This document shows, one piece after another, positions 3,767 to 62,700 of a DNA stretch of 64,000 bases. Position numbers and translations under genes: made by a program. Under the pieces are notes generated by a model. It ran no database searches and was not told the origin of the DNA. It saw nothing but the letters and a program-made list of their open reading frames with translations. The DNA is from Bilabrum cf. latius (Eukaryota): the NCBI GenBank assembly GCA_965178125.1, contig OZ237764.1, positions 1-64,000 on the forward strand, written 5' to 3'. The number at the start of each line of letters is the position of its first letter. Position 1 is the first letter of the stretch.

Positions 3767-3777
3767 TTTTATGGTAT

Positions 3778-12545: not shown

Positions 12546-12567
12546 TAAGAATGAATGTGGAATCCAA

Positions 12568-23588: not shown

Positions 23589-23591
23589 TTT

Positions 23592-35041: not shown

Positions 35042-35101
35042 CATTGTATAGAAATGCAGCACATCCACATCCACGTCTACATCCAGATCCACCTCGCTCT
35101 C

Positions 35102-36595: not shown

Positions 36596-36738
36596 TATTG
36601 CTACTAGGAGCGAAGCGGTCGGATTGTAGATCTAGGATCTCTGTAGGTTCCGCACGGGTAGGCGGCGCGCAGCGCCCACGCATCAGGAAGCCTGCTGCGC
36701 TGTTACGATTGAAAAAGACTTGTCTAGCTCTTATGATG

Positions 36739-38026
36739 TCAATGATCTCCCGAGTCACCATGCCCGCCACCCTATGGTGGTCCGTCCTCCACAACCAGCG
36801 CAGGCATATCTGCAGGCTCCACCCAGCCCGGGCTGCCCGACTTGGGGACGACCCGCTCAAACAGGAACATAGCACCAACAGTCTTGAAGTCCGGAGCCAT
36901 CCGCCAGGCGTCCTCGTATCGGACAATCCGGAGGCAGATCTGCTCGTCCGAGATCCCCCCGAGTCGGCCTTGCAGTCGGTCTAGATCTGGCCTCGCGATG
37001 CTGCGCTCGCACGAAAAGAGCCTGATAAACTCATCGCAGCCACCTGCCGACGGATAAAGCCCCTGTGGAGTCCATTTATCGTCACTGCCAGCCCCATGGG
37101 GTGACTCGCCACTGCCGGCACCTTCAACTGCGCTTGTGCTTGCGCCGCTTGCACCCGCCACACCAGCCGAAGCAGCCTTCGCGGGCGCCCTGCTACTTGT
37201 ATGGCTTGAGAATGCGGTAGCAGGAGACACGAACGATTCGGACAGCCGCGATTCTGCAACCAGGTCCCTGAGGTCCTTCTGGCCCAAGACAAGGCCAGCC
37301 TCTTCACGCAACTCTGCGGCGGCCACCCCTGCAAAGTTTCCGTCCCCGTCCATCATGCCAGCAGGAATTTCCAGAAATCGAGCGCATCCAACCGGTAGTC
37401 TGGGCTACTCGGTCAACAAAACGTAACGTTCACCCTCGCAATGCAGAACCACTAGAATACCAACAGCCCCGCCGCGGCAAAAGCAAATGCCTGGAACTCG
37501 CTTGCCTCCCCGAGATGCCCCAACCCGAAACTTTATGAAACCGACTCGTTTCCCAAACATGTCTAGACTCTGAAAGTGTACGCTGTCTACCTAAAACTCT
37601 TCGTCAACAGAAGCTTTCCAAGACCTGTGGAGAAAATGAGCGCATCATAGGCAAGACACAAGCAACAAGTGCACAATAAAATTGTCTGGACTCTCAGATT
37701 CGTGCCGGCGGTTGCCATTCCCACACAATCATGCATACAGAGCGTAACGTCAGCAGCACCATGAGCAGCCTCGATGGTTACCGTTGGAAGGCAATCATCC
37801 CGTGGGCACACACACTAATGCAATAAAAAGGCATTTGTGCAGGGGAAATTTGATGCGGGAGCCCTAGTGGCAGCTTGTTGCGCGAGGCAAGGCGGCAATA
37901 CCCGACTCACTAAAACTGGGCTGAACTGAGGCAAGCCCCGACATCGATGCCCGGCTCTCCCGTAATATCAACAGACTTTCCTCGTATCTTGCAATCATGC
38001 GTGCATTTCGTTGATACTCCGGCCAT
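36739..38026 (-). CDS. Nudix hydrolase, NUDX14/ADP-sugar pyrophosphatase-like; intron 37625-37910; four TAG sense codons
   Basis: QSLDMFGKRVGFIKF...VPGICFCRGGAV...YVLLTE[TAG]PRLPVG...LEIPAGMMD...AAAELREEAG (Nudix box), YPSAGGCDEFI, APDFKT; TGA at 36739-41. Confidence 0.9.
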
Positions 38027-38354
38027 GATGAGTTTTGCCAACGTCTTGCGATATTGTTCTCGGCAAGTCAACGGAACTCCCGTGTGACGAACAAGGAAAG
38101 ACGCAGCACTGCATGCAGCATGCGTGCATGCGCTTGGGTCTATTGCAGCGCTCGGATCCTGAAATATCTGCCTAAATGCATGATGATAACGTGCATGAAA
38201 ATTGCAACTTGCCACCCTTGAGGTACTTGCGCCGCCTAGGCCCACGTGCCTTGGCTGGCAGCGGCAGCCTACCTTGACATGTGAGGTGTAGCCATCAGGG
38301 CGACAAATGGATTGTGCAGTTGCATGCACAGCCGCGTGCCCTAGTGGCTCAGGC

Positions 38355-40192
38355 TCAGGAAGACTTCTCGCCCGCGCCCCCCGCCGCGGCTCCGCTGGCG
38401 AAGAGCCCCTCCACCTTGGCGGCGCTGGCCTCGATGGCGGGCACGTCGTGAGTCTTGAACTTCAGCTCGCTGGCCTCAAATCCAGGCATGGGGAATTTCT
38501 GCGCGAATGCGTTCACGTCCGCCCTCAGCTTGTCCACCCCCTCGTCTCCCTCGAGCGCCTTGCCGAAGTCGGCGAGGCGGGGCCCGCTCTTGGTCTGCAA
38601 CTCCAGGCACAGCTGCACAGCGCGGTGCAAGAACTCCGCGATGGCCTCGAAATCCTTCTCCTTCATGCCGCGCGTGGTGAGCGCGGGGGTTCCGATGCGC
38701 ACGCCGCCGGGTGACATGGCAGACCTGTCGCCGTAGATTGCGTTCTTGTTGAGCGTGATGCAGGCCGCGTCGCACAGCTTCTCCATCTTGGACCCGGTCA
38801 GCTTCTGAGGGCGCAGATCCCACAGGACGAGGTGGTTGTCGGTGCCTCCAGTGGCCATGGTGTAGCCCTTGGACACGAGCGCGGCGGCCACTGCCTTGGC
38901 GTTGGCCTTGAGCTGCTGCACGTAAGCCTTGAAGGCAGGGGTCATCGCCTCCTTGAGCTGAGTGGCCACGCCGGCGATCTGGTGCTCGTGGGGTCCTCCC
39001 TGCAGCGCGGGGAACACTGCCATGTTGATGGCCTTCCCGAAGCCCCTGCTGTCCTTGCGGTAGAAGATCATGCCCGCCCTCGGGCCTCGGAGGCTCTTGT
39101 GTGTCGTGGTGGTCACCACGTCGCAGTACTCGAATGGGCTGTCCGCCTCCTCAGTGGCCACCAGACCAGAGATGTGCGCCATGTCGCACAGCAGCAGCGC
39201 CCCGTTGGCATCAGCAATCTCGCGGAACTTCTTGTAGTCCCACTCGCGCGGGTAGGCAGACCCGCCGCACACGATCATGGCGGGCTTGAAGAGAGCAGCC
39301 AGCTCGGCGAGCTTCTCGTAGTCGATGCGCCCGTCCTCGGAGGACACGCGGTAGGGGAGCGACTCGAAGAAGATCGAGGTGGCGCTGATGTTCTTCTTGA
39401 CGCCCTCCTTCTTGCTGTACGTGTAGTATCCGTGCGTGAGGTGGCCTCCTGAGGGCAGGTCCAGGCCCATGATGCGGTCGTGCGGGCGCAGGAGCGCGGT
39501 GTACACTGCAAAGTTTGCGGGCGATCCCGAGTAGGGCTGCACGTTGATGCCCCACTTGCTGGAGTCCAGCCTGTAGGCCTTCAGGGCCCGCGCCTGGCAC
39601 AGCTTCTCGACCTGGTCCACTACTTCGTTTCCACCGTAGTACCGAGCTCCGGGTAGACCTTCGCTATACTTGTTCGTCAGCGCAGATCCCAGGCAGTCCA
39701 TCACAGCACGAGAGGTGAAATTCTGCGACACGGGTGCAGTGATTGCTGGCAGTCAGTCATACGAGTCCTTTGACCAGGAATGAACCAGCCGATTGGCATT
39801 TCAGTGTACTCGATCCAAACTTACCTCAGACGCAATCAATTCCAAGCTGCTCCACTGCCGGGTCTTTTCCCGCTCTGTGATACAAGCGAGTACAACGTTG
39901 GGCGAGGATCCCGCTGGACAATATCGAACCCTAGAGGGTTTCAGCTGCTATAAAGCAGCTCTACAGACACAGGAGGACTCACCAATCAGATCATACATCT
40001 CAGGGTCGTGCTCTTCAAGCGAAACGTTGCCTGGCTGCGAAGGGAGGGGTAAAAGGGACGTTGTAGGCTGGAGCAGGCGTAGGCGACTCTTGGAACATTG
40101 TAAACAAGGAAATTGCGTTGTCTCTAGCTCAATTAGGCTCGACTTACTAGCGACTTTGGCACATCTGATGAGGAGCCAGCTGCTGCTGCCAT
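38355..40192 (-). CDS. SHMT: Serine hydroxymethyltransferase, probably cytosolic; exons 40192-40148, 40034-39983, 39874-39825, 39722-38355
   Basis: Spliced product has [56 protein letters not shown] and GTDNHL; three GT-AG introns keep the frame; ends at TGA. Confidence 0.97.
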
Positions 40193-40774
40193 ATTTACTG
40201 TTTTCAAGCTCAGGATGCGAGGTGACGTCTATACTCTCGTCGCCGCGCAATTCGCGCTGGTGGTTCCGCTATGGACCCTCTCGCGAACAATCGGCTCCTC
40301 TGCAACACGACCGAGCAGTCTTGCCTTGATTTTCTAAAACCACATTATTGATAATGCTTGTATTCAGCTGATTCGGTTGTTGATATTCAATTATGTCGAC
40401 TTTGTTATGGGCAGGCTAGTTTAAGAATGAGTTTGAGGCTTTGGTCGTATATCAGCGGGCAGTGAGGAATTATTGCATCATTAGCTTAACCACTTTTATT
40501 ATTTCTATTGTATTGCATTAAAATTCCCACAGAAAGCTTCGGATAACGCTATGAACACCTCATTCTTAGGGTTTTTGTTTTGCAGGCTGCTATCTGTCTT
40601 GTGGGGCTGCAAGCTGAAATGTTTCTGGGTGGAGCGGGGTACTTGAAACATCTTTTTAGGCAGCAGTGTACCCGGAGTGTCACTCAAAGCACGGGTGAAA
40701 GGCCAGTGGGCTCCTTGAAGCGTACAGCGGCCTGTGCCACCGCCGAAGCTCAGTTGGACTGGGCGATTCCCTGC

Positions 40775-43700
40775 ATGCCTGGCGTAGAATTAAGTGAATT
40801 GCAAGACACTAGTTCGCCACAATCATGGGATCCGCCGGGGACGCAGTACCCTGGCTTCGGCCGGTCCTCGTCTGTGGAAGCTGTTGATGTGCAGACTCCA
40901 ATGTCGGATGCCGCTTGTCTTGCGACTATTCGCGCGAACCCTGCGACAGCGGGGCCTACGTCTGCCACTGCTGTAGCATAGTAGCTCATGCCGGCCCACA
41001 TGGAGGCTCTCAGGGACATGCACCGGGACCCTCTCACAGGTCGCAGGCTGCGCCCTTTCGAGGCCCTTGTGGTGAGCAGGGACGGGTCGGTCACACGGGT
41101 GAGAACCGTGCCCATCGAGCTGGGGAAAGCGGCAGCCCAGCCCGCCGGAGTGGCCTTTGTGCGCTCTCGCGAGCTAGCTCAGGCGCGGGACCAGCCGGTG
41201 ATGCGCTTCGTGCCCTTTTTGGGCGAGGACGAAGACGTGGACAAGATGAGGGATGCGTGCGTGTACGACGCGAGGCCGGACCTGCCGACTGCCTGGAGGA
41301 GGCGCATGGAGGCATAGACCGCGCTCTTTTGTGCGTGCAAAGCGATTCTAGAAGCTGCATCGGGCGGCGAGCAGGCGACGGCCGCTGCACTGCGGGCGTG
41401 TCCAAAGCGAGTGCTGCGTGCCCTGTTGTTGCCGAGGCGCGTGCGGCCAAGCAGCGCTCGGGAACACGGCGCCGGGGCGCATTCAGCGTTACCACTGCAG
41501 CTGCTGCACGAAGAAGAGATGGAGCATGCAGGGCACAGGGGAATTCTTCCCGTGTCTGGCCCCGCGGATGTCGCTGCATCGCTGTCAGGGTCACAACCGT
41601 GGAGGACGAACGGGTCGTTCACAGTGCCACCCAGCGCGCTTGGCGTGACGGCAGGCATCTTTGCGGGGGCGACCGCCGGCGTGCTTCGAGGTGTCACCTA
41701 TCTGGTTGAGGTACCTGCACAGCTAGCTCTACGGCTGCACTCCTCGATGCTGTCGCACCTGCTGACCATGCCCGCCCACGAACTACAGGCTCTCGGCCCA
41801 CCATCGAGCTAGCTGGGCCGGACAACACTTGCATCGCGCGACCAACAGCCCAAGATGGAGACAGGTCTCGATAGAACCGGCTACCTGGCGAACGGTTCTA
41901 CTGCCAGCGTTGCGAAGGCCGCAGGGAGCGATGCTGCTGCTAGCGCGGGTCCCACCAAGCCATCCTGGAGGCGCGCCGTCCAAGCCACTAGAAGGTCCGT
42001 CGGACCCATGCAATCGCAGCTGTGCATATTCTGCTTTAAGTACGCTTGCACGCAGCACAAGGGCTCGGACGCTGCAGCTAGTACGGATCAGGAGTTGATT
42101 CCATTGTCTGCGCCACCGGCTGCCCTCATGAGTGAAGCCACTGTCTCGGAGCGAAAAGGCGATCCCACCGTCCCTCTAGGCATGGTCATGGATGATGAAG
42201 CTGCCTGCGGCTTGCTTGGAGCGGCTGGTATTGACCCATCGGGGCAACCTAGCCAAAGGAGGCTGCCGCGCATGCTGCGGTGCCCCGCGGACGACTATCA
42301 CTTGAAGGGGTTTCGTCGCCTGCGAGGTAGACAACTCTTACGTGGGGTTCAGCGCGTAGTGCAAGACTCTGCTGGGCTACATGAAGCTCAGCTACGATCC
42401 AGTCATGGGGCAGAGCCTGGGCCGATCACTATTGGGACGAAGAGAGACCGCCTTGGTGAGCCAGCTGTCGCACCTGAATCCAAACAGGATGCCGAGGGGT
42501 CAGAGTCGGAGGATAGCACACAGTCGACCGCCGTCGATGAGCGTCTGGACGCGTTTTTTAAGTGGGCGGAGGCAGTTTCAGGATGTGGCCACCAGTGCTA
42601 TGCGAGATGCATCGGGGGCCGACAGAGCAAGTTTGTCGTTTGCCTTGCTGGCATAGGCAAGCTGAACAGCCGCAGCACGCTCCCTGCACCAATTCATCTT
42701 CGGCAAGGTGATATTATCGGAACCCCACACGTGCTGTGTCTTCGGCCCATGCACATCGATGGGATGGCTGCTTAGCTTGATAGAGCATGCGAATGGGATA
42801 ACCACAATCGCACAATGGCTGTTGCGAGCGACACTGAAGAGGTGGTGCGTGTTGCAAGGACTCAAGATGGTGCCGGTGCAAGGCGAGCGGGTTTGGAACG
42901 CCGTCGAGAGCCGAGCCGACGAAAGCATCGCGCCCCAAAGCGGACAGGAACAATCACAGCTGGCATGCTTGGATCAGTCTCACCTGGAGGGTTGTGCGGT
43001 TCTGGCGGCACATCAATCGATGCGCATGAAGCTGAGCTTGCCAAGGCAGCCCCAATACGCTCGACTGTAGGTGAATGGGTCGCATCCGAATCAGACGACT
43101 TGAGCAAGGCGGTTGACCCTCTACTGCCGGCCTTCTCCATTTAGCGTGTGGTACAGGATGGCGCGACACCCAAAGGGTATGCGTCTGCACCTGGCTCCCG
43201 ACTGGGCATGATCCATGGGGAGACGTCACTCGGAATCGGTGTGCACCTGCCTGCTTCATCCTCCCGGTGGGAAGCGGCAGACAGGAGCTCGCCGTCGGAC
43301 TGTCGCGGATTCTCCGGGGTAGTGATGCCCCCGACCGGGTGGTGGCACATGTCGGGTAAGTTGAGGGTCTGGCAGGCCGATGCATGGCTACGCGTGCACG
43401 CCGAGCTCACAGAATGTGAGCACGTCTTCGGTGCCGCGAGCGAGCCAGGCCAGAGTTCCTCTATCGAGCCCCTCGCTGGCTCAATGGGCGACGGTAGTGC
43501 ACGCAACATGTGTGCCGTGGGCATGACGGCAACTGACGGTTCAGGATCGTACAAGTCGCTGCCAGTCTTATCTGAGAGCAGCGCGCTAGCGCTCGAGCAG
43601 TGCGAGGCAATCTTACGAGATGAAGTGGCCACTGGGCTCGTGCTCAAGGCACATGCGGTTTGCAGCGGGTGCGTGTGTACTGCCGCTGAACTCTTGGGAT

Positions 43701-45553
43701 GCTCTTGCCTAGTCACAGGGCTGGTTCTTGAGCGGATTGGTGTCGCGTGCTGGGCTCTAGATCCTGTCGAGGCAACTCATGATGCACGGCAGGAGGTCAA
43801 ATCGCCGGGTGTGGGCCAAGCATCCGGTATGGCTGCAACGTAGGGGGCTGATGCTTCTCCGCTCACCCAGCTGCTTGATCCTGTGGCGGATGCTGATGCG
43901 CTGCAAGGCAACTATCCGGGCACTGGGGATGTGATACTGTCTATGCGGCTTGGTACTTGGGAGGGCCTGGACCGCCTCAAGACCCCTCCTCGCAAGCACT
44001 CGAACCGTAGGCGCGTCATGGTGTGGTGCGACCATGACGGGCCGTGCAATTCGGAAGCATCGCAGTGCAAGTGCGTCATCGCAGGCACTGTGTGCTCAAA
44101 GAACTGCGGTTGCGATGAGACTTGCAAGAATAAGTGGTCTGGGTGCGTCTGCGGGCGCAAGGGACAGGTGTGCTCCACCAGAAACGGATGCCCTTGCGTG
44201 GCCAGTGGCCGTGAGTGCGATCCAGACGTGTGTCAGACCTGCGAATGCCTGATTGCACATCAGATTGGACTAAGGCACTCTGCTGCATAGGCCAGTAGCT
44301 CAACCCTTCAAACAGGAGACTGGTCACTGCAGCTGCGCCAGGCAGCCGTGAAATTAGGTGGAGACCCGACGCTGCTATTACCTCCAATTTTAAGTGACCA
44401 TTTTGATTCCTCCAGTCACGGACGGGGCTCTGCAGATCGTGTTGGTGCGCTTGCTGCAGCCCAGGCTGCTGTAAAAAGGTATAGTGATGTGTGGGCACGT
44501 GAGCTTGCGGGCATGTAGGCTTATGGGAGCACAGCCAACGTCAGTCCCAGTCGCAAGAATGGGCCAGTCATGCCACGGATGCACACTTTGGCTCGACTCG
44601 TGGCAGCTGCCCCTGAAGCAGCGGTACGAGCATGTGTTGCGCGCGACGCAATGCAGTCCCAGATGCGGCATAAGCTAGAGCCATTCAGGGGTATTGCTGG
44701 TTAGACAGGCCCCCTAATCCACCCTGTCGCTGCAGTGCAAGGCGCCTTGGCTTGCTGGGCGTCGATTGCGTTCAGTAGTGGGAAGTAGCTTGTGGCTGAA
44801 CAGCTCGTGTCCCAGTCATGCTCGAATTCCCGAGTACTAAGTAGGCTGCATCACACTGTGCGCCCAGGCGTCAGCGCTGTGCCGCACGCTGGATACGGAC
44901 TATTTGCAACTGCTCCGGTGCGCGGCGGGCGGCTGCTGCTGGAGTACACTGGAGAACGACTGGGCGAACTTGAATCAGAGCGCCGGGGGCAGTTGTACGA
45001 TGCGCGGAATCGAAGCTACCTTTTCGACCTTGACGATCAAGATGGCGGCGTGGATGCGACTCGCCTTGGGAACAAGATGCGATTTGCCAACCACATGGGC
45101 AAGGGTCACGTGCTGTAGAACAGCAGGCAGCGTTAGCTCCTGTCTTTGGCTCGTGAGAGAATCGGTCTCTTCGCGTGCCGTCCGATCCAGGCAAACGAGG
45201 AGCTATTCTTTGACTACGGCTACTCGAACAAGCGAGCAAACAGCGAGCGGGCCAAGCACGTCGGTTGGATCAAGGATGCCCGCATGGCGGGAAGGGTGCA
45301 GACGGGAATGGTATCTTCCGAGGGTGCCAAGCAGCCCAGCAAGCGCCCTGGTACCAGCGCTGCCGTATCTGAGGCTCACACAGACGATCCCCTGTACGAC
45401 GGCTAGCGGCCGAAACCAGGCGGACGCGGCAGGGGTCGAGGTTCGCGCCGCGGAAGAGGCAGGGGGCGAGGGCGCGGCTAGCGGCGGGGCCGGGGTCGCG
45501 GGTCTCGAGGCCGTGGTGCAGCCACGTTCAGCGTAGTTGACTTGGTGGGTTGA
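40775..45553 (+). CDS. E(z): Enhancer of zeste-like CXC-SET histone methyltransferase (PRC2 catalytic subunit); start and one possible intron near 44.5-44.7 kb uncertain
   Basis: FVPFLGED (SAL-like), CIFCFKYACTQH, CGHQCY, CXC domain CDHDGPC...CPCVASGRECDPDVCQTC, SET motifs GYGLF...EYTGE...RRGQLYD...SYLFDL...VDATRLGNKMRFANH...RIGLFA...EELFFDY; nine same-frame ORFs that end in TAG; TGA at 45551-53. Confidence 0.88.
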
Positions 45554-45627
45554 TCTCTGTGGACTTGGATGTTAGCTAACAGAATTGGGTAGAAGAACGT
45601 GATGCATACGCAATCGTTTTTCTCGTC

Positions 45628-47163: not shown

Positions 47164-47700
47164 GCCACTACTACCTTCTTCTGGTTTGACCCGTATTCGA
47201 TCGCGGTCACTGCCTCGTCCAGATCCTTGCTCCCATGGGGGGGTGCTTGCTTGATCTGCTCTGGCCACCGGCACGCCTACCCGCGGGCTCTACCCCGGCT
47301 CTAAGAACCCGCGCGACTACACATTTGATGTGCACTGAATGAAAACTTGCGAATCTGCAGTGAATTCAAGAATTCCTCCAGAGAGCCTTGGTCGGGCGGG
47401 AAATAGAGCCTAGAGCGCCCTCATAGATGGAGCCTCCAGCGGAACCAGAATCCATGCCATATCAGACTCATTGAACACAAAGCGTGCTACGATTCTGCGG
47501 TATATCGGGGAGAAATTAGGAGCACTATCTTGCTGAGATTTGAAGTCACACGTTCATGCAGCATTTTGGTCTCTAACAGTCGTCCCTTCAAGGCATGGTC
47601 AAGAGAAACTACTACCCAAATCATTTCACGACCGATATCATGGCTTCAATTGATTGCTGTCTTTTGTGAGGCTGCCCGCTTGACCACGCTGCGGAACCGA

Positions 47701-50700
47701 ATGGCGCGGCGCCATGAAACGGGCAAGACAGGTAATCCATGCTAGACAGCTAGTCTTTTTATCAACCACCACATGATTAGCATACTTATACCATGAAAAG
47801 TGTTACAGGAAGCGACCATGCGATTAAAGCAAAGGGGCTGTGGGCATTGCAGACTCTTTCGAACGTCGCGTCCGCCGCTGAGCAACGCGGATTGCGTTTG
47901 CAGCTATCTGTGGTCGAGACTGCTATGGTGGATGATGGAATGCCATCTACAATACTATCATCACTGGAGGACGGTGGATTCCGTTCTTATGATTTAGCTC
48001 GGTCTGGAGCTGTGCCTGGGGCTGCCGCCACCGGTGCAGCCGAGTTGCAAAGACGAGTGGAACTCGTCATGCACCGCTTTGATGTATTCCTGAAACGAGT
48101 TGGAGCTCCATGTCACGACGATGCTGATGCACCATTCTGTTTTGCGTGGCGCACAAGTGGGGATGTAAAGTCGCTGTCGCGAGCCGAAGCGCAGCGGTTG
48201 TTGCTAGATTCCAGCTGGATGCGAGGTGCCGCCGCGCTGTAGCCAATACCAATTACACGATAGGTATGTTCAGCACTGTATGAACGCCGTCGCACTCTAG
48301 TAGGCACTCGTGTAGCTCCGGGTGCATCGCTGGTTGGAAGCGATCCAGCAATCGACGAGGAGGTAGCGGCAGCGGCTGGGGGCAGCTAGGACGGCGGCAG
48401 AGAAGCCCATGAGGCTGCAGCCAGGCTCGCTAAATTACTTCAAATTGCCCATGCAGAAGGAATGGTTGGGACATCATCTAGGGGAGTGCATCCGTGGCTG
48501 TCCCAGCCCGGAGGCGAGGGGCAGGCAGCATCCAGTTGGATCGTCACTGCGGGACCGGGGGCGCCCCCCCTGGCCGGACTGGACGATAGAACCGCAAAAC
48601 GCGAGGCTGGAGGTACGCGTGTGGGTGCATCAGGCAGGGCGAGTAGGCGGCGGAGCAGTGCTGGTTTGGAAAGGGGCGCGGACAGCACCGAGGGAGACGA
48701 CTCCGGTGATGAGTTGACTGCAGCGGGGTAGGGCAAGCGGTGCACTCGAGTGAGGGTGCTGCGGCTGCTTGCGCGCTTTGCAAGGACCCCTGATGGTGTA
48801 CTGAGGCTCACAGGGGTGGCAGATGCCGCCCTGCAGCACATGCAGATGCCGGCCCCCGTGCGGGTGGTGATGGATCCTGCCTTGGCGCGGGCACAGGCAG
48901 CCGAGGAGGCGGTGCGGGCGGCGGATGAGGCCGAGGTGGCCTTCAGGGAACAGCTGAGGCTCGGTTAGGAGAGGGGAGTGGGCTTGGCGGAATCATTCGC
49001 GCATTTTGATCCGACGGGCCGGGGGTGGGTGGACGACGAGGCGCTTGAGGAGGGGCTGCGGCAGCTCGGGCTGGAGCTGCACCCCATGTCCATGAGGCTG
49101 CTGGGCGAGAGGTTCATCCGAAATGCACGGGGTCGCATCACCCTCAAGTCTTTTCTGACCTTCGCACAGGCCGCTACCACTTCCTAGGACACAGGGGCCG
49201 GTCTAGTGGACTCGTCTGGCGGAGCGGTAGGGCAGCCACCCCCAGTCGCACCCGGCGTGGCTGGCGAGCGGCCGTTACCTCGTGACGGCACTGAAACCCT
49301 ACTTGATGCTCGGAACGATGCGAGTGAGGGAATTGGGGCAAGAGATCCCCGAGAGCTGGCCGCTACTGTGAGGCTGCCAGTGGGCGGCAGCGATGCGGCC
49401 GAAGGAGGGAGCACCGAGGGGGGCGCACAGGCTGGTGGTAGCACTGTGGAAGGCGATGACATCAATGATGCGGCTTCCCAGGCGCGCTCCTCAAGCGTTG
49501 TTCGAGTCCTGCAAGATGCCCGCCGCGAGGCCAGCGCGGGGGTGTTTGCTGGTGACGAGCAGCTGGCGGAGCTGCAGGCTGTGGTCCGCGTGCCATACGC
49601 GAGTGGTGATGCGTGGCAAGGTCAGTCCAAGGCAGCGCGGCAAGCTGCTCTGTCTGCGCACCCTGCGACTGTGCTGCAAGGCGAGTTGGCGGAGGAGCAT
49701 GCCAAGATGACCCGGGAGAGACGGGCGCGGTTGGCCAAGCACAGCAACGCTCGGAGCGGGCTGGGCCCCACCAAGCGTGAGCTCGGGCTGCTGGGTCCCT
49801 CTGAGGACGGCCGCCATCGCGATCTGGAGGGAGTGCTGGTGGATGCGATGCAGAAGCTCGATGCAGAGGATCCCGACGATGCGTTTCACCGGAGCAGCAT
49901 AGGGAGGAGGAACAGGCGCCTTGCGCGGGCAGCTGGACACTAGCGGCTAGACGGGGGTGGCACGTCCAGGGGTGCTGTGACCGAGTCCAAGCATGCATCT
50001 CGCGCTACAAACTCAAAATCAAGGAAAGAACGTAGCACTAAGGGGAGGCGGGGAAGGCACGCGCTGCCACCAGGTATACGTCCGCCCGTGCCCCTGCAGG
50101 AGGCCATGCCGTTGCACCCTATACGACCGAAACCCGATACCACAGTGGTGTCGGTCCGGGCGAAACCAGAGGAACCCCGTGGATTCGGCATTGTGGCACC
50201 AGCTTCCGAGGGAAGCGGGGGCAGCGATCTGTCGGACGAAAAGAACCGCCGAGGCGGAGTTGCAGGGATCCAACGAGCGGGCAGTGTTTCCAACTTGCCA
50301 TCCAGAACACCTACTGAGGCCGCCATGGCAATGATTGCCCGCACGAAGGATTTAACGAAAGGTATCGAGCTCGGTATGCAGACTGCGTGGGGCGAGGGGG
50401 GCGACAGCAGCGATTGGCGGTAGGCTCAGAAGTATGCTGGGCCTGCCAGGGGAAGGCTAAGCAAAGCACGGGGCAACAGGCGTCGCAGGCGCGGCCGAGG
50501 TGCGGCTGCTGATCTCGGGAAGTCGCCGTTTGCCGCATCCCTCCCGGCATGGGCAAGAGGCCCATCGAAGCGCAACGTGAGCGAAACCATGGCCACGCTG
50601 TCGCAGTCAGCTCGGGCGCATGTGGAGGAGGTCGCCGACGAGGCGGAGAAGTCCTTGCAGGCGCGACGGAGACGGCCCGGAGGTGGGAGGCAGCTTGCAA

Positions 50701-53700
50701 GGAACAGGCGCGAAGTGGTGCGAGAATTGCTGGACGGCAAGCATCCAGTTGCAACCAAAGATCGCAGGAGACGGTCTCGCATGGACGATGAGTTGAAGCG
50801 GGTCGGAGCTGAGGTGAGCCAGCAGGTTGAGGCAGCTCAAAGGGCAGAGGCCTCAAGGCAAGGGCTCGGAGACAACGATATGCAGCCCTTCCTGGTGTCG
50901 GGTCGCCTCGGGGATGGAGATCGAGACGATAGCGGTGACACGACGCGCCTCATGCTCACAACAACAAATCCGCTTCCAGTCGATGCACGGGTGCCTGCAG
51001 GAGCTGACGCACTTATTGCATACGGAGCTAGCCCGAGCAATGCCCGAGTATTCATGCGTGGCGTAAGCGTTGATGGCCAGCCACTACCTCGCGGGCGCGC
51101 TCCCCACGCTGCTGATAGGCTCCCGTACTAGCGGTTTCGTTATGATGAGGGAACAGAGCTTCTTTACCACGTCGTTCGAGGACCAGAGTATCGGGTCACT
51201 CTGGACGGAGCCATCGATGCCAAGTATGCCGAGGACGCCCCGAGGAAATCGGGTCTAGGAGCCATGTACCGGTGCGTGACAGGCGCGCCGCGGTATCCAG
51301 GGGGTCGAGGGGCTTCTCCGTATGCGAGTGGTAGGCCGGTTGACCTCATGTACGTGCCTGGCATGCACGAAGACATGCATGGCATCGAATCGCAGCTTCG
51401 GTCGCTTGCATGCAAGCTGCCAGGGTGCCGCGTGCTGGTGATGCACCTGCCTGGAATGGCTGGAACGACGTGGGACGAGTGGCCGGACTATTTGGACGCA
51501 AGCAAAGCGATTGAAGAGGTGGGATCAACTGCCGAGAGGTATGATGCCCTCCTGGAGCGATAGATGGCGGCTCGGGGGTCCGAATCCAAGGCGAGCAGCA
51601 GAGACCGCCAAACCGCCAAACCTGGTCAACAGAAGGGAGTGGGCGACAATCCATCTCGCAAACGGTCGTATCGCCCTCTAACCCCGCGGTTTCATAGTCT
51701 TTGTCTGCACGCACTCGTCCAGCACCTGAGGACCACGGGTGAGTGGGGGCCCAAGTCCGTGTAGGATCCACGCACTGATGCGTTCGAGAAGACTAGGGGT
51801 CGAATTGGCCGAGACGTAGTCATCTGTGCATCTGGAACCAGTACGCCTGTCGCTAATGCTTATGTGGGCGAGCACGTGTGCAAGCGCTCTGTGGACCAGC
51901 AGGACAGAATCATGGCGTCTGCATTGCGGTGCAACGTGCTAATCAACCCATTCGCTCACGTCAACAAGTCCCTGGCGCGGGTCCTGGAGGGCGTGGAAGA
52001 CTCGCATGCGCCTCTCGCAGAGCTTGCAAAGCTACCACAATAGCAACCTAGGCGCTCTTCTGTTGCGAGCATCGATTCGACTAGTCCTGCTGCATTGAAG
52101 GCAGCAGTTGGAAGGCGATCGTCGGCCGGCGGGCGGCGGCCATCGATTGGTGGCGCTTCGGCAGCCACGGGAGCCACCGACATGGGCTCCGTTGCGACTC
52201 GCAGGACAGCTAGACGTGCTAGCGTAGTATCCAAGAAGCGCATCAAACGAGAGGTCGCTATGAGGAAGCGACTTGGGGTTACCTTTGAGCAGCATCCGTA
52301 CTACCGACCGGTGAAGGAGTCTAACCACGACAGTGCAGACGAGTCTGACAGCAGTGATGGGGGCGAGGACGAGGATAGGAATGGGGCGGCAGGTGATGCA
52401 GACTTGGCAGCATACGACTTTGACGCAGCTGTAAGGCGGTTGGAGCAGACCCAGAGCAAGGAGAGCAGTGCTTCTCGTCAAGCTGACAAGGAGGTGGATT
52501 GGGTCCGGTCTGCTCCGGACGCCTCTGGCTTGTTCGGCGGTCCAAATGGCAGCAGCCATTCGAGTAGCAAACGAGGCTAGTCAGCGGAGAAGCTATTGGC
52601 GCTTCGGCCTATCAGGGCGCATGCTATCAGGCAACTGTCTCGCATGCTCCTGGGCCCTTCATTTGTGTCCGTGATGGGCGAGCGCATCGCTCTCAAGGAG
52701 CTCTTCCGAAGGAATCCACCGCTGGGTTACGGTGATCCGTTCTTAGATGATGGTCTCGCTGCCATGGCACGCGGGCTTAGACGAACGCGGGATCAGCGAC
52801 AGACCCTCAAGTAGCTTCCAATTCCAGTCCTTGTGCTGGCGGGCAGTGAGGACGCATTCGTGGTACCACTCCATGCGTACAACATCGCTCGCAATCGCGG
52901 GTTGCAAGGCGGAGGGAGTGGGCGTGTGAACGATGAGGATAGCGGTGGCTTCAATCTAGGTGAGTTCCTTCAGGTGGCTGGCTAGCCCCCCAGGCGGTCG
53001 TGCCTGTCGATGTACCTCTTGGACAACGATGGTGCATCGCAGGGTGCGGTCGAGGGGTCTGTCAGCGGCAGTCCAGACACATCCAAAGTTGACGAACAAG
53101 GAGATGCGCTAGATAGACTTGAGTAGACGCAGAAAAAGCTTGCTAGCGAGTCTGGGGGTGGTGTTGATGGAGGCACGAGGGTTGGCACCGCCGCGATTCG
53201 AGACAGTGACTTTGATCTGTACTCGTCTGAGCATGTTGGAGGTGGTATCACTGGCACGCTCTACCCCACTCACGTTGCCTGGCTGAAGGCTGGACATTGC
53301 TTACTATTGGAGAGACCGGGATTCTGCATGAGGGTGCTCGAGGCAGCGCTGGTTGGACACAACCAAGACAGGCCCAGCACGCCCCCGCCACGCGGTTCAC
53401 TGTTGACTGCAGAAGAACGAACCGCGATTGGAATTCTGGGTCCAGAGGACAGCAGCGTGGGTTATCTTGGCGAGAAGCATGACGGCGCAGAACCAGATGT
53501 TTCCGTGTCTCAGGCACCTAGGCGCGCGTATGGGACTGAAGTTTACGGGCAGACCACGGATCGCTTTCTGTCAGACACTCAAGTAGAGGCTGCTGGTACC
53601 CGTGGAATACTCAAGGGTACCAGAAGGGATACCCCTGCAGGCACACCCTTCAGTCTCGCGGAGGATGACATGACTTGGGAGTCTGGCCAGGCTGGGCAAT

Positions 53701-56700
53701 CGGTGCGTTTCGGCTCCACGGCAGGTGCAGCATAGTACACCTAGTCTTCGGTTGGCTCGGCTCAAAGGCACAACGATTTTGGTATCGCTGGTGCCGATGA
53801 GCAGGTAAAATCTGGAACTGCAGCTGGGAATTCATCTGAAGCACAGAGTAACGAGGACGACCCTGCCGTTGCCCGAGTGCGGGCTGAGCTTCGGGCCCGC
53901 GGACTGTCGGATGAGGGCACGGAGTTCGACTTGCTGGCTCGGCTGGAAGAGGCGCTGGACAGCGAGATGCAGACTGCTGCCACCAGGACCGACAAGGCCA
54001 GGAAGGACAGGGTGTCTCGGCTGCAGAAGACGAAGCGTATTGAACTTGAGGCGCAGGCGCGCTCGAAAGAGTCGACGCGTTAGGAAAAGCAGCTGCTGGG
54101 CACAGAGGCTATGCAGGCGAAACAGGCCATGGACCGACTGCACCGGGGAGTGGAAAACGAGCAAGAGGCCCACGAGCGAAGACTTATGGCTGTCGAAGAC
54201 TCGATAGCTCGGGATGTTGCTGCCTAGCTAGCTGCACGGGAGCGTCGCGAGTAGGAAGACAAGGAGTAGCAGGAGCGTTTCGCGGCTGCACGTGCTAGTG
54301 AATAGGAGTCTGGTGGCTAGCTGGTTGTGTTTGACCCACTCGGGGATGCCGACCAAGCCAAGGCGTTCGAGCGCAGGCGGCAACTGCGGCGCGCAATGGA
54401 GCTCAAGAGCGAGAGGGCCGTTCGTGCGCTGGAGGTCAGGCAGCGAGTGGGTGGGCGCATGCTTCAGCTGCGGGGCGAGGACCTGGGCTACGCAATGACG
54501 GACGCCGAGGAAGAGGTAGAGGTGGAGGCTCGGGCGGAGCGAGACAGAGCTATGGGCAGACTCGAGTCATGGCTTGCTGAAGAAGAGGCGAAAGAAGCAG
54601 GCAGCGGCGATAGCGTCCCCGAGGAAGAGCGCGGAATGGATCGCAAGGGAAGGCGGGCGCTCAAGGTGCTCCGGAGGCAGGCACGGCTGCACGACACGGT
54701 ACTTAAGCTTGCAGCTGGATCTGACCGCCTGATGCAGCACTGCCAGTAGCTGCGCTTCAAACGGCGAGGCGTAGTGCGCCGATGGAAGCTTTTGTTCGCT
54801 CGTCAGAAGGAGCAGCAAGATTAGACGCGACGCAGGCAGCGTGAGGTGTCTGCATGTGACCGCGCACTTGCACTTGCCTAGAAAGAAAAAGATGCAGTCG
54901 AAGCTAGCCTGTAGTAGGGAGGTGGGAACCGGGTATTGTAGCAATAGATGCTGCAAACGTCTTCTGCAGAAATCGAGCAGCTGATCAAGTATAAGGACGA
55001 GCAGCGGGCGTTCGTCGACGCTTTGGTCGACAAAGGTAAGCTCCTGCAGCTCGAGCTGGAGGACTCGACCGCCGCGGCGCAAATGCTCGTCAACTCGAGC
55101 AATGCCAAAGAGGGCGCTCTTACCCGCATGCGGATTGTGATGAGCAAGCTTGTCAGATAGCGGCGGATTGCTCGTCGTGATGCGCAGGAGAAGCAAGACT
55201 CTGCCATGCAAGAAGCTGCGCAGCTCGTTCGCAGCTTGGCTTCCCTGAAAGCCCGGAAGCAGGCGATGCGGTCGGAGCTGAGCAGATGCAAGAAGGAGAA
55301 GCAATCAATGTGGATCGACACGTCCATCTGGCAGCGGACAGGCCAGCGTATCCGTCGCTCTGAACTCAAGGAATACCTTCGCAGAGAGCTCAAGAAGGTT
55401 CGCAATGACATTGGAATGCAGACCCGTGACCTGCGGCACAATCGTGCTGTTGCCCTGGAATGTGATGCGGTGCTCTCTGCCGCTCAGGAAGACGTGTCTA
55501 TGCTAATCAGCCGTTTGCGGCGTGTTGTGGAATGTATCCGTGCCGGCCCCTCTGGTCCACTGCGACTGCCGAGTGCTCTGGAGATGCAGGCCTCTGCCAG
55601 TGGTGCATCGGGCGGTGGGGGGGAGCAGGACCTTCTCGACGAGCTGGAGGCCCAGGTGGCGGGGGGGCCCGGCACCATGGGCAGCACCATTGGCGCTAAA
55701 TAGACTGTTCCTCGCGCTACCCCATACGGCCCGACGCTCTCGGTTGAAGACCAGGAGTAGCAGTGGACGGCCAAGTACAGGTCTAGCTGGGAGGAAGTCG
55801 ACTTGCTGCTGCATGAAGTCCAGAGCAGTGGGGAGAGAATCAGTGAGTTCGGGGCCTGGTATGCTAAAGTGAAGGACGCGCCCCCACCTGTGCCGACCGA
55901 TGAAGCAGCCGGGGGAGGTGCAGGCGGCGAACTGACGGCGGAGGTGCAGTAGAGCTTGCTCAAGGCTTCTGGTGAGGAAGCAGGCGATGCTGGCCCGGAG
56001 CAAAGCGAGGAGGAGGCCGAATAGGACGCCAGCATGTTGAGTAGACCTTCCACTGGGCTGATGAGCTCTACGTCCTAGGCGCTAGTTGACCGGTCGGCAT
56101 CGGCACATGCCGAAACCCTGGTAGGCTTCAGCAGGGGCCCACAGGGTGTCCCGGTTGTCGTGCAAGACCAAACCAAGGTCGCAGCCGCTACACGGTGGAA
56201 GCCGGCTCTCGACCGTACTTTGGAAGAGAAGAGGTGGGTGGCAATCGACAAGCGCATGATGGGTTAGTTCTATGGTAACCTCACCGAGGAAGACCAGCAG
56301 GCATACGCGAGCGATCCTGCTTACCAGTGCCACCTCCCGAGGGATCTGCTGCTTAGGATCGCCGCGTTGCCGTGTTCTCCTGGGATTGCATCGGCATTCA
56401 TTTCGACCGAGGCCCAGATGGAGGCCCATGGGCTCATCACAAAATTCACACTGGGCCAAGGGGAAGACCGAGAGCACTTTCTCGACCAGCTGTCCGGAGC
56501 CAGGGCAATGGCAATGGCAGCAGTGGCCCGGGGATTCGTGGCCCGATCCAAGATGCCACGGTTTAGGAGTGAGGAGGAAAAGGAATGGGTGGCAGCCGAT
56601 CGTGTCCTACGGCCGCACTTATACATTGGCGAAGAAAATGAGCCTGGCGAAGACCGCGAATCCGACGCTGGCGAGCCTGGCACCGATGTGTCTGGGCCTG

Positions 56701-59700
56701 CAGTCAACATGGTGCGGGAAGGCATCCAGGATTTTGTGGAGTCTGGTGGCCCTCTCATTCTCGAGGTCGCAAACAGCGACGATGAGACAGAGGGCGCTAA
56801 GAACCTAGTGGAAGGAGATGGAGATGGTATTAGCGATAGCGGCTCGGAAGAGGATGGTCTACATGCGAGCGGTGCGGCTGCAGCCGATGGAACGAAAGGA
56901 GCTGCTCGAAGGCGAAGCGAGTCCGGACAGCAGGTGCTTTCCGGTGGAACGCGCAGACCCACTGGACGGGCAATGTTCAAGCGCCTGAGTAACTTTAAAG
57001 AGAAGCAGGACTTGTAGGCCGAGGCTGCCAAACGCAAGCTTGCTCGAAGCAAGAAACGGAAAGCTGCATTTGAGTTCTTCGAGGCCACAGATGAGGCCCA
57101 GGGCAGAGGAAATATTGCCGAGCAGACCTTTTCAAGCATAGATGATGTAAGGAGGCGCGAGTTTTTGATGAGGCCCCCTGGTGGAGCACCCCTCGCGTAC
57201 TCGCGAGAACAGCTGCTTGAGCTGCTGCGGACGCCCCCTGGCCAGCTGAAGTCAAAAAGCGAGCAGCGGCTACAGATGCTTCTAATGGCATATGGTAGTG
57301 ATGGCGGGCGGGCCATTTTCGAGATGGCGTCACGGTGCCACTATGCAGTCGTGCGAGGGCTAGCTGAGGTGGCCGAGGCGATGCAGGCTGTGCAGGAACG
57401 GAGGCTGCCGCTGCAGTTGGCAGACTACGCCGAAGAAATGTGCATTGCCGATGCCGATGGGTCGCGCCTTAACGTGGCAGCTGTCGCTATGTAGGCGTGC
57501 CAAGGGCTGGTGCTCGTGCGGTCTAGACACTCGGCAACGCTGCTGTCTGTGCATGGTGCCACCGTGGAGGCCGGTCAGGTCGCAGAGCACTCCTTCGTGG
57601 TACCTGGATCGATCGCAGATTGCGTGGGCCACGGTCCCAGAGGATGGGGCGGGAGCCGGGGCAATGCTACCGCGCGACGTGGGTATGGACACCAGGGCAT
57701 CCGGAGCGTGTTTGGGGTGTCCCTGGACGAGGTACCCGCCGAGCACGCTGCTAGCTTGATCGAAGCTGCAGCTGCTGCTGGGGTCCATGGCACAAACGGC
57801 GCCCGCGCGGAAGGGTCGCAAACGGCCATGCCGGCGTGGTAGGGCAGCATCAATGCTGGTTTAAGCATGGCTTCAGGCACCACACCCTTCGCGGACACGG
57901 ACGAGGTGCCAGGCTTGGGTCGAGTGACGTGGGCCGAGAACTCGGTGAATCGGCAACAGCAGCGAAGTGCCCTGGCTCGCCTGGAGCTGGCCCGCACCAA
58001 AGCGCTGGAGGGCCTGGGCTTGCCAGTGTCCCGCAGCAGAAGGCGGGAAGAGATGCAGCGGAAGGTGGCAGAGCAGGAGGCTGCCATTGAGGAGGCAAAG
58101 CGCGTGAGCCCAGCGGGTTGGGTCCAGTCATCTGTAGCGAGCGCGCGTGGAGAGTCTGCTGATGCAGCGAATGCAGTGGATCGTACAGGCAGCAGCACTT
58201 CCGAGCGCGACAAGTTTGACAGGGACGTTTAGAATGCAAGTCGGGTCAGGGGATTCCTTCGACCTAGTGATATGGATGGGACAGGCTTGGCGGCGCTTCA
58301 GGCAGCCCGTCCAATTGGGAGCACTGGCGATAAGCTGAAGGAAATGGCCAGGTAGGCCGGGTCCAGGCCCGCTGAAGCTGGGGTAGGGGCGACTTCGGGA
58401 GCTGTCAACGCTCTGCACATCACTGGGTCTGCTCCATCGGGATAGGACACCGCTAGAAATAGCTCCATGGACGCTCCCCGTGCCACAACCGCAGAAGAGC
58501 AGCCTCTTGCAATGCCCACGAGTGCCCTGGAGGATGCTCGCTGGGAGAAGCAGCGCTTGGCGGAAGAGGCTCAGCGTAGTGCGCGCGAGCGAGCTGGTAC
58601 CCCTGGAACCCATGATAGTGCCGCACCATCCTAGGGGTTCGGCTAGGGCACGCCCGAAGAAGAGGACGGCGAGGAGGTTGACCCAGCACTCAGGCCCCGC
58701 ACCAGATATGAGCACGAGACGGGTGTACCTGGTGTGTTGCCTCAAGCGCTTGATATATCTGTGACCATCACATTCCATGGGGAGTTCCTGCGGACAGAGT
58801 ATGTCCCAGCCCGGCTGTAGGGAGTGCTGTACAGGGAGCCAATGTGCGGGGAAGTGGCCACTGACCTGAGGGAGCCGGTGGCATATCTGGGCGAAGACCA
58901 CGCCGACGAGCTGGACAAAATGCACGGCGATTCAATACTGATAAGGCAAGGGAATCCCATGGAAGACATGCCAGGGGGACCCGCTGCCGTGTATACCGCG
59001 CGACAACGTGGGCGACCACCCGTGCATCCCAACATGTCCTCGCATCTTGCACCAAGCGCCTAGTCCAGCCAGGCAGAGCGTGGCAGTGCGGTCAAGACCC
59101 CTCGGGAGAGGCATGCTCGGTTAGAAGTGCCGCCGTAGGAGAGATTAGCAGGATAGATGTGGCCAAAGCTTCGAATGGGAGGGCCTGTGAGCGTTGGAGT
59201 TGTGCCTCTATCTGGAGAAGCCACACAGCTATTGCGTGCCGTGGCCGGCCCGTCCAACCACGAGACGAAGGCTTACGACCCATCGAAAGGGGCGCAAGGC
59301 GCCAGCGTGCTCGACGCGAGTAGCCAAGGGCCCGATTGGGGAGGAGCTGCCTCGCGCGCCCAGGCATCTTCGGCATAGCACGGCCTCGCACTTGCAGCCA
59401 GGAAAGCAGGGCCCGCCGAGCTTGGTGTAGCCAACGGACAGCTGGGAGCCTCGAATCAAATCAGTAGCAGTGCTGTCTACACTGGCCCGAGGGTCGATGT
59501 GGCAGGTACCTCGCTACATGACCTCCAGGTGAGCGGGGCCAGGACTGGCAGCATCGCCACAACAATCGTGACCCCCGAGCAGCTGCCTCCACTCGCTCGG
59601 CCCGTGCCGCGACTGCCAGGGGTGCCATCTGACCAAGTAGTGGCGCAAATGCGTTGCCCAGTAGGCTGGTCGTCCTGGTAGGAGTGCAAACCAAACACAA

Positions 59701-62700
59701 CCGGCAGCATCGGGAGGTTGGTGATCCGACACCGCCCTCTGACTCTGCCCGTGATGCCGGGCAAGTACACGGTGGTGCTCAAGGGGGTCACCAAGGCGAA
59801 CTACTCTGTGACTGTCTCGTGCCGGCTGGCCTACGCCGCCCGCGATGTGGTTGAGGGCTGCGTGCTGAGCTCTGACAAGAAGGAGAGACGACTACCTGCA
59901 AGCCGAAAGGAACTGGAAAGCATTGCCAGCAGCTACCGGCTTGGTGCCAGGAAGCGGCATATTGTCCGACAGCTCATCAACCAAGTCAATCGCAGAATGA
60001 CTGCCAATGTACAACAGCAAAGCTCACTGCGAGAGGCGCTTGACAAAGGCCGGGTGCTTGTGCGGGATCTAGGCAGTGATGACGAGGCAGACTCAAGCTC
60101 AGACGAAAGTGACTCGTCCGATGACGGACTGCGTGCACGGGCGGATAGTGATGCCAGCAGTGATACGAGCAGTATTGCCAGTGGGTCATCTGCTGGGACC
60201 AGCGACAGCGGGTCCTCGCGCGGATCGTCTGGCACGGGAAGTGATGCGTCCTCTGCCGCTTCTGGAAGCACAGGCAGCAGCGGCAGCTCGGGCTCAGGCT
60301 CATCGAGCGGTTCCGATGCGACTGGGTCGGGGGCAGGTAGTCAATCGGGCAAGCCGCTCACTGCGGAGGACGTGCGCCGGAAGATCGAGATGAATCGCAT
60401 CAAACAGGAGCGCAGACGCATGCAGTTGGCTGATGTTACGGAGAGTATGCGGGGCCGCATCGTGCGCCGCATCTAGAAGCTGGAGGAGAGGTTTGCCACG
60501 CTGGCGCGCTCCCTTGGCACGCGCTCGGACGAGATGCGGCAGATCGAGGAGGGACTCATGGTGCTGCGAGAGGCGAGACATGACCGATAGGCCGAGGTGG
60601 AGGCGCTCGTCTCTGGCATTCGCGAGTTCCGCAGGTACGTGCCTGCTGCTGCTGCTGCCCTTCGAATCGACGCGAGCGGTTCAGTGGCGATGCGCAAGGA
60701 GAGACGCAGGGCCGCAATGGAGCGACTGGGGTTGACGGAGCTACTAGGGCGCGCCCCTGCCTCTTCTATTGAAGAGCAAGTGCAGGAGACGGTCAGCAGG
60801 TCGCAATCGATAGCAAGCGGGAAACGATCATCGCAGGGAGGCAAGAGTCTAGGGGGACTGGCAGCTGCAGAGCAAGCTACCCTGCAGCAGCAATCCAAGG
60901 GCGATGCCCGCGCGCTCGTTCTCGCCCACACCACGCAAGGGCAGCTGGCAGTGCAGCAGCAGAACAGAGATGATATTCTGGAGCGGTTGCGACCATCGCC
61001 ATCCGACGTGGAGTACGTGCGGCTTGGCCCCTGCGTGATGCAGTACTTGGTGCGGCAGGACGAATCCACCATGTCGAACCCAGCTGTGACTCCGGCGATG
61101 GTGGTCCGTCGGAAGCCCATCAGCGAGCTCACCTATGAGGAGGCGGTCTGGTTGGCAATGGACCGGGTGATGCACCCGGAGGAGCACGAGCTGGATGACC
61201 AGGGACAGGCAGAAGATGACGAGCTGGCAGGCTTGGTGATGCTGGCCCCTCCCAACGGTGAATCGCTCAGCGCCGGACCCGTCCGTAGGCCACAGTCCCG
61301 GCAGCCCACTCAGGCTGGTGGGCTAGACTAGAAACCCCGCGGTATCCTCGCCCGGATTCAGCGGGATAAGGCAGCCAAAGGTAAAGCTAAGATCGCACAA
61401 GATGCAATCTAGCAGCTGGATTCCGTGTATGACGCGGGTGGCGGTCCACCTCCTGTGCCCAAAGACGAGGCGATATCAGAGGGGCAAGGTGGAGATGGTC
61501 CGGCTTCCGGTGCTGGAGCATCTCCGGATGCAGCTCCGCAGGCACGAACCAAGGACGAGCTGAATCCCGTGGAACCAGCCGTAGTAGGGGGAGCCAAGGG
61601 ATAGGGGCTTCGTGGAACGGCCGCTGATTTGTACGGGCAAGCCAATTAGGGTCGCATTTCCAAGGAGGGTCGTCTTGCGGGGGCCACTTCCAGCGCAGAG
61701 GCTGACTCTGGTGGCGCGGCTGGTAGCGCAGCGCCCAGTAGCAGAACGGAGGCCCGCAGAGATATGAAACTCGTGGGCAGAAACCCGAGCGCCAACGCCC
61801 CGGTGCAGGTGCTGGACCCTCATCTTCAGACGAGCACCACGCTCACTGGACATTTGGGTGCAATCCGCCTGCTGGAAGTGACGGGCGGGTAGATGCCGCC
61901 GTGTCCGTTCAGCAGAGTTGAATTACGGCGCATCCTCACGGCGCCCGTCACAACGCTGGCCCCAGTCGAGCGGGAGGCCAGGGACCTCCTCAACAAGTAC
62001 CACGACAGGCCCCCGCCCCGTGCCGAGGACGCGACACTTGGGCTGCAGCAGGGGCCACAGGGAAGAAGACTAGGCAGTGCAGCCTCGAGCCGCGTGAATC
62101 TCCGAACGCCAAAGACAGCTGCCATCACTACGCGACAGCAAGCGGCTGGCGGCACAGCGGGGGCTATTTTGCCGTACGGTCAGCCGCAAGGCGGCGGTGA
62201 GCACCCAGATGGGGTCGTGCTGACACCCGCCCAAGAGGCTATTCGACAACGCAACCTGCAGCTGGAGTCCAGGCAATCTGAGCAGCGATCCGATGGTGGC
62301 GCCGGCATGCAGTACCACCGTGCTGGGCCAGAATTTGCCGTGGTGCGGTCGGCGGTGCCTATCCCCCGGCACGCGCCCGCCAAGCTTAAGCACCTGCTTG
62401 CAGTCCGCGCCGTTGCCCTCACCACCCGCTGGGAGGCTTTTCTCGAGAAACACCGCAGCGAGACATCCAAGACGGACACCAAGGGCCGCAAACTACAAGG
62501 AGGCGCTGCTTGGGGCGGTTCCACGGAGGTGCAGGGGATTAATGTGATGGAGCTGTCGGACGTCGACCAGCGGGCGAGAGACCTTCTGGATGAATTAGAC
62601 AGGGCAAACGGGTGTGCCAAGCCAACGATGGACTCGGCCGTGCTCTATGGTGTGGAGCAGCGGTACCAGACGATCACCCTTCGTGCAGAGCTCGAGAAGG

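Follow-up and report, generated by a model that had tools for sequence, protein, structure and literature searches.

Reassignment of UAG alone was first described, in the account given in PMC5304391, from a rhizarian (exLh), in which the codon specifies leucine, and from Iotanema spirale, in which it specifies glutamine and UAA is the primary stop. According to PMC11687900, glutamine is also the meaning of UAG, next to a UAA stop, in Protocruzia tuzeti and, twice, in phyllopharyngean ciliates, and PMC8271138 describes UAG as serine, again with a UAA stop, in the green alga Scotinosphaera. Codes in which UAR specifies glutamine are listed for ciliates, hexamitin diplomonads, some ulvophyte green algae and Streblomastix (PMC5304391, PMC11687900, PMC6299283), and Amoeboaphelidium protococcarum is cited in PMC6299283 and PMC5304391 as reading both TAG and TAA as glutamine.

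Here we analyse a window of 64 kb, by which we mean the whole stretch of DNA under study, in which a Nudix gene on the minus strand is crossed by in-frame TAGs. We consider it very probable that TAG is glutamine and that the TAG at 37405-37407 (-) supplies the conserved Gln of Q-x-R-x-P in an intact, expressed Nudix gene. On this reading the code is of the kind of NCBI table 15 (UAG = Gln), although most genes stop on TGA. It resembles that of Iotanema, Protocruzia and the phyllopharyngeans in having TAG as a sense codon, best taken as Gln, in not using TAA as sense and in stopping on TGA. It differs from Iotanema spirale in the stop that prevails, UAA being primary there (PMC5304391) whereas 13 of the 14 long frames in the window end on TGA and one on TAA, and from both Iotanema (Fornicata) and the ciliates in its host, which appears stramenopile-like by its SHMT gene and is GC-rich (about 60%). 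With the UAR = Gln codes of NCBI table 6 it shares TAG = Gln and TGA as stop, but TAA is absent from the 5421 codons of a giant open frame, where about 26 would be expected of a Gln codon, and one frame ends on it.

A conserved glutamine column in a Nudix gene

The plus-strand letters at the site are CTA, read directly, and give TAG on the minus strand, whose translation runs ..LLTE[stop]PRLPVG.. and then ..LEIPAGMMDGDG.., the LEIPAG stretch with the Nudix box downstream; the string given by the initial annotation, YVLLTE[TAG]PRLPVG...LEIPAG, is thereby recovered. The last coding exon opens at an acceptor-like ...CAG/G at about 37624-37626 (-) and runs from about 37622/37624 to the stop (Table 1). 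The column check that had been proposed on a spliced translation held, whereas splicing around the site proved needless, one exon spanning the TAG. Nudix homology begins at the W of ..SWKAS.. in tblastn searches with the N-termini of eight homologues, which returned only weak matches, near 38054-38137 (-), for the 5' exon or exons and the start codon.

Table 1. Features of the 64-kb window, with positions counted from its first letter.
Feature	Position	Strand	Evidence or remarks
Perfect (ACCCTA)x147.7 array	6566-7451		TTAGGG-type telomere, left chromosome end orientation
Subtelomeric repeat	7454-7911		53-base unit, 8.6 copies
Tandem array	12567-13538		129-base unit x7.5, 97% matches
Degenerate tandem array	20680-22982		19-base unit x128, 81% matches
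tRNA-Gly(GCC)	23591-23663	-	RNA gene search; sole RNA gene found in the window
Stop-to-stop Nudix frame, TAG as sense	36739..37644	-	301 codons, three in-frame TAGs
TGA, real stop of the Nudix gene	36739..36741	-	..DSGDH just before, common to P0001 and P0002
Last coding exon of the NUDX14-like ADP-sugar diphosphatase gene (by homology)	36742..37624	-	X6/X7 colinearity, homology, Pfam NUDIX
Third in-frame TAG, aa 291	36772..36774	-	11 codons before TGA
Nudix box region, aa 96-118	37291..37359	-	invariant glutamates of the family; aligned to the NUDT5 Nudix box
In-frame TAG, aa 80, at the conserved Gln of Q-x-R-x-P	37405..37407	-	column Q 111/115 and 147/149; unchanged in X5, X6 and X7
First in-frame TAG, aa 18	37591..37593	-	within the exon, variable column, covered by the X6 contig
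SHMT main exon	38355..39752	-	0 TAG, 0 CAA, 13 CAG; TGA stop; spliced joint 39722/39825
E(z)-like CXC+SET gene frame	40547..45553	+	1668 codons, 15 in-frame TAGs, ends on TGA
Giant open frame	47736..63998	+	5421 codons; 65 TAG, 0 TAA, 0 TGA; runs off the window

By homology the gene is a NUDX14/NUDT5-like ADP-sugar diphosphatase, a name taken from the annotation of its homologues, many of which JGI calls 'ADP-sugar diphosphatase'. Pfam NUDIX scores 23.2 bits on the frame against a cut-off of 21.1, and of the Nudix-box glutamates in the family alignment, E111 and E115 never vary, with E114 at least 90% conserved. The protein is like NUDX14-type enzymes, human NUDT5 and bacterial ADPRase (NudF) in its Q-x-R-x-P, its (L/I)E(I/L)PAG(M/L)xD, its Nudix-box glutamates and a C-terminal GGCDE block; its likeness to solved Nudix structures is weak with the single sequence (E 0.055) and reaches 1.6e-10 with the family profile. 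Unlike the known NUDX14, NUDT5 and NudF proteins, it carries a low-complexity insert of about 70 residues, common only to two relatives (P0001 and P0002), and a conserved acidic C-terminal tail. The best named Nudix matches come from chytrids and zygomycete fungi, at 35-39% identity. One homologue of 629 aa (P0242) joins two NUDX14-like domains in tandem, each with Q at the Q-x-R position.

The column of aa 80, which the TAG occupies, was read in two sets of homologues. The first comprises the 115 with E <= 0.001 among 8000 candidates scored in a word-indexed search, aligned with X placed at the TAGs: 111 have Q, three have E (P0046, P0107 and P0111) and one has a gap (P0001, which begins downstream of the site). 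The second comprises the best 150 of 1444 matches in an exhaustive HMMER search of 1.84 billion cluster representatives, read from pairwise alignments with X in the query; ten of the 150 are also in the first set, and the 149 that cover the site show Q 147 times, E once (P0346) and a gap once (P0376). The column is thus predominantly Q in ADP-sugar Nudix homologues, as the initial annotation had claimed, and S, L, Y, K and W occur in it in 0 of 115 and 0 of 149 cases.

Q-x-R stands at the same place in solved ADP-ribose/ADP-sugar pyrophosphatases (human NUDT5, bacterial ADPRases and a Thermus Nudix protein), and the further statement that Q-x-R-x-P precedes LE(L/I)PAG in enzymes of this kind was borne out by the homologues and by the NUDT5 and ADPRase chains. 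When TAG is read as Q the motif is complete, with R82, E92, P94, A95 and G96 at least 90% conserved and P84 present in 97 of 115 homologues (84%). Among the 37 columns of the family alignment that are invariant or at least 90% conserved, that of aa 80 is the sole Q; were the meaning of TAG unrelated to Gln, the chance of a TAG in a conserved column meeting the Q column would be p about 1/37.

Other TAGs in the Pfam domains of the window lie at variable or ambiguous positions, which leaves this site, as had been judged from the letters, the best single-site evidence for TAG = Gln. Those in the C2 domain fall at variable positions relative to solved structures, and one in the SET domain aligns with the conserved Pro of the EZH2 NHS..PN motif, with a four-residue insertion adjoining and the register unsure. 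Within the Nudix gene itself, the aa 18 column holds A 23, V 15, D 11, E 9, K 8 ... Q 3 among 99 residues (115 homologues, 16 gaps), and the aa 291 column is almost entirely gaps in the same alignment. Residues beside TAG are enriched in Q 1.35-fold, against a 1.4-fold self-enrichment of Q, which is too weak to use.

Glutamate is the one rival residue that the column itself brings up. In that reading TAG encodes Glu and the enzyme carries E at the Q-x-R position; E is the sole alternative residue in the aa 80 column (3/115 and 1/149), UAR is Glu in peritrich ciliates and Blastocrithidia, and UAG is Glu in one oligohymenophorean ciliate. Against it, Q exceeds E in the column by 37:1 to 147:1. 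The initial claim that TAG is Gln and not Leu, Glu or Tyr therefore stood for Leu and Tyr, which are well separated, and by this site alone stood for Glu as far as that ratio goes; the gap between Gln and Glu is closed because relatives show Q at five of six TAG sites of the window, as set out below.

TAG in contigs of sequencing runs, some of them transcript-like

A run search found the whole stretch or part of it in 15 runs from nine studies, and four runs were aligned to the window: X5, X6, X7 and X10, the last a diverged relative with 1243 differences. A contig of X5 covers 33600-38247 with 0 differences; a 986-base contig of X6 follows the window colinearly from 36728 to 37622 without a single other letter or gap, and an 823-base contig of X7 covers 36728-37550 with 0 differences, the TAG being kept in both. 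Joints with GT..AG ends are present in X6/X7 at 33685/33777 and 34154/34263 (plus strand), and a CT..AC joint at 39722/39825, which is GT..AG on the minus strand, is found in both. The RNA nature of X6 and X7 is a program's guess, X6 being labelled 'probably DNA' and none of the listed runs being recorded as RNA; because their contigs are gene-sized and contain GT..AG-bounded joints, we read them as transcript assemblies. In the X6 Nudix contig 91 further bases fall outside the exon, and these are presumably the 5' exon of the gene.

These contigs bear on the possibility that TAG is not translated at all, the gene being a pseudogene, the letters a sequencing error, the site intronic or its RNA edited to CAG. 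The standard code does break the Nudix frame three times, and the predicted protein of a relative (P0001) starts only past the site. Three further runs, each from a different study, however, have contigs with the same letters, and in two of these runs a spliced transcript-like contig is colinear across the site and keeps the TAG. Conservation extends to either side of each Nudix TAG, the tail past the third included, and two other long frames hold 80 more TAGs between them. Being identical and colinear in spliced contigs, the TAG is therefore not a sequencing error, not intronic and not edited to CAG; where the initial annotation had looked to cDNA and reads for a CAG, the transcript-like contigs carry TAG. 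The Nudix gene is intact and expressed, and we regard an untranslated TAG as extremely improbable.

Contig ends lie near stops in three places: 11 bases past the Nudix TGA (36728, in both X6 and X7), 46 bases past the SET TGA (45599) and 6 bases past the TGA of a gene at 45628-47553 (-) (45622). The last two belong to convergent transcripts that end 23 bases apart. The 3' UTRs are very short and the genes tightly packed.

Residues at TAG sites in close relatives

Six fragments of relatives (P0116-P0121), 83-99% identical, match the giant frame over aa 1233-2655; they were compared as predicted proteins, that is, standard-code calls, not as codons, and are biased towards stretches in which the relative is without TAG. 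At six sites where the window has TAG they show Q five times (aa 1276, 1343, 1436, 1797 and 2475, the last seen in two fragments and counted once) and E once (aa 1615), with S, L, Y, K and W at none. In the Nudix gene, aa 291 is E in P0001 (92% identical) and Q in P0002 (59-63% identical), and P0002 reads Q at aa 80 too, by ordinary codons. Over the relatives as a whole this makes six Q, two E and no S, L, Y, K or W. The sample of informative positions is small, namely the one conserved Nudix site and six or seven sites compared with relatives. The tail past the third Nudix TAG is conserved, P0001, P0002 and the window ending in the same five residues, and because it is kept in the relatives we conclude that this TAG is read through.

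The ends of the relatives' frames carry information of another kind. Frames stop exactly before the window TAGs at aa 2000, 2338 and 2656 of the giant frame, and one relative's frame stops before aa 1687, a CAG codon in the window. P0001 begins at the first ATG after aa 80, a start that would fit a standard gene caller if this relative also has TAG at aa 80. A metagenome scan for the relatives' DNA returned at least 24 loci, the best at 37% identity among the matches listed and none a close relative.

The residues of the relatives fit glutamine with occasional Q-to-E replacement, to judge from these predicted proteins. Replacement of Q by E is common and explains the two cases, at giant aa 1615 and at Nudix aa 291 in P0001, in which the relatives side with glutamate. 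Glutamate fits less well because it would call for five or six replacements, as against one or two silent changes; it is also met by Q at five of the six giant-frame sites and at Nudix aa 291 in P0002, and by a relative's stop that faces a CAG of the window, not a GAG. Taken with the Nudix column, this makes a glutamate meaning of TAG very unlikely.

A different residue again, whether Ser, Leu, Tyr, Lys, Trp or pyrrolysine, is less probable still. Such meanings of UAG exist elsewhere, as described in PMC5304391, PMC11687900 and PMC8271138, and serine in particular is worth weighing because UAG = Ser with a UAA stop has been reported for Scotinosphaera; within the window, the TAG at aa 18 lies in a hydrophobic or variable column and one SET TAG is aligned with Pro. 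Neither the Nudix column, however, in either set of homologues, nor any of the six giant-frame sites has S, L, Y, K or W, and glutamine is the reading carried forward here.

TAG as a sense codon and TGA as the stop

TAG is a general sense codon in this genome. It occurs in frame three times in the Nudix gene, 15 times in the SET gene and 65 times in the giant frame, transcript-like contigs are colinear through such codons, and a contig of X6 is colinear over the SET gene (40586-45599). In the giant frame CAG and CAA stand at 172:69, so that TAG, if Gln, makes up 21% of the Gln codons; the same ratio yields the figure of about 26 TAA expected there if TAA were a Gln codon too, against none observed. 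The heavily covered SHMT gene avoids TAG and CAA alike, a pattern that fits if TAG is taken as a minor Gln codon. The giant frame, of at least 5421 codons, shows no Pfam domain at E <= 0.001 and contains coiled-coil-like stretches rich in E, R, K and Q; it is 83-99% conserved in relatives, and its function is unassigned by domain.

TAA is not a sense codon, and it probably remains a stop, although the one long frame that ends on it is without RNA support. The frames under transcript-like contigs end on TGA in six of six cases. All these frames were defined with TAG as sense, so that a TAG-terminated gene would escape notice.

This last point bears on an ambiguous code, in which TAG would be Gln inside genes and a context-dependent terminator of some, and which would be compatible with glutamine as the sense meaning. 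Context-dependent ambiguous codes occur in Condylostoma and in karyorelicts, and short 3' UTRs accompany ambiguous codes elsewhere; here transcript contigs end 6-46 bases after three TGA stops, and the window is only 64 kb, with TAG-ended genes hidden by the way in which frames were defined. Yet the transcript contigs extend about 45 bases past the third Nudix TAG, and because the tail after it (aa 291) is conserved in two relatives, TAG is read through even near the 3' end; moreover, the frames under transcript-like contigs all stop at TGA. We consider such ambiguity unlikely, and TAG as glutamine with TGA as terminator is the reading that we retain.

Host affinity and composition of the window

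From position 6566 on, G+C taken over 2 kb at a time is about 55-76%, for the most part near 60%; the introns are of the GT..AG type and about 90-110 bases long, and the genes are closely packed. The best named matches of SHMT are stramenopiles at 73-77% identity (brown algae, Chrysoparadoxa, oomycetes, diatoms and a raphidophyte), with a single exception among 20-odd, a Brassica record at 63% identity. Closer SHMT relatives are P0122 (97% identity) and P0184 (88%); the latter lies with the Nudix protein P0002 on one contig of 22,830 bases and thus shares the gene neighbourhood of the window. A stramenopile-like host is suggested by this one gene, SHMT, and is not proven. Amoeboaphelidium, which the fungal and chytrid Nudix matches had suggested as host, was dropped, since SHMT matches stramenopiles and TAA is not sense.

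The eukaryotic part starts at a chromosome end, as the telomere array and subtelomeric repeat of Table 1 imply. The preceding stretch, 1-6565, has about 44% G+C and long, intron-free minus-strand frames with no or few TAGs, and a frame at 1541-3781 carries a type IX secretion C-terminal sorting domain (Por_Secre_tail, E 1.2e-13). It looks like Bacteroidota DNA joined directly to the eukaryote telomere, likely through a chimeric join or concatenation in the assembly. Long open frames over the tandem arrays at 12567-13538 and 20680-22982 are spurious, a consequence of the repeats. Two unrelated proteins end in long tails of Arg-Gly (RGRG...) repeats, encoded at 30970-31050 (-) in a C2+WW protein and at 45450-45550 (+) in the E(z)-like SET protein.

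Discussion

The observations are best explained if the window comes from the nucleus of a microbial eukaryote, GC-rich, gene-dense and probably stramenopile-like, whose cytoplasmic translation would read UAG as glutamine and use TGA as the working stop, TAA not being used as sense and probably still serving as a stop. By analogy with other UAG-reassigned eukaryotes, UAG would be decoded by a tRNA-Gln with anticodon CUA, and eRF1 would no longer recognise UAG efficiently; for Iotanema a T32G change in eRF1 is reported. Neither a tRNA with anticodon CUA nor, among the frames, an eRF1 gene was found within the 64-kb window.

No report of a stramenopile with UAG = Gln was found in the full-text literature searched, which holds few subscription journals. 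We raise, as plausible though short of probable, a first non-standard nuclear code in a stramenopile-like lineage: Gln would have captured UAG alone, termination would fall almost wholly to TGA, and close relatives would still be exchanging TAG and CAG. The lineage would then comprise at least three related taxa, namely the source of the window, a second that has diverged from it by about 10% and a third, more distant, that shares the Nudix-SHMT neighbourhood.

Nuclear codes in which UAG and UAA differ in meaning are rare and bear on how eRF1 tells codons apart; those described in PMC5304391 and PMC11687900 are of one rhizarian, Iotanema, Scotinosphaera and some ciliates. If the reading just raised is true, the reassignment could be watched in progress, and UAG would have parted from UAA independently once more outside ciliates and metamonads. 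A protist that is GC-rich and looks culturable, with relatives sequenced at various distances and with several DNA runs and probable RNA runs, would be a good system, in which one could date the code change and trace the alterations of tRNA and eRF1 that underlie it.

The code matters in practice too, as standard gene callers break the genes of such a genome at every TAG, and the database proteins of the relatives (P0001 and P0116-P0120) are fragments of just this kind. Both the annotation of the organism and its protein-based placement need the right code. Should the host lineage be confirmed, the finding would be of real interest for the evolution of the genetic code.
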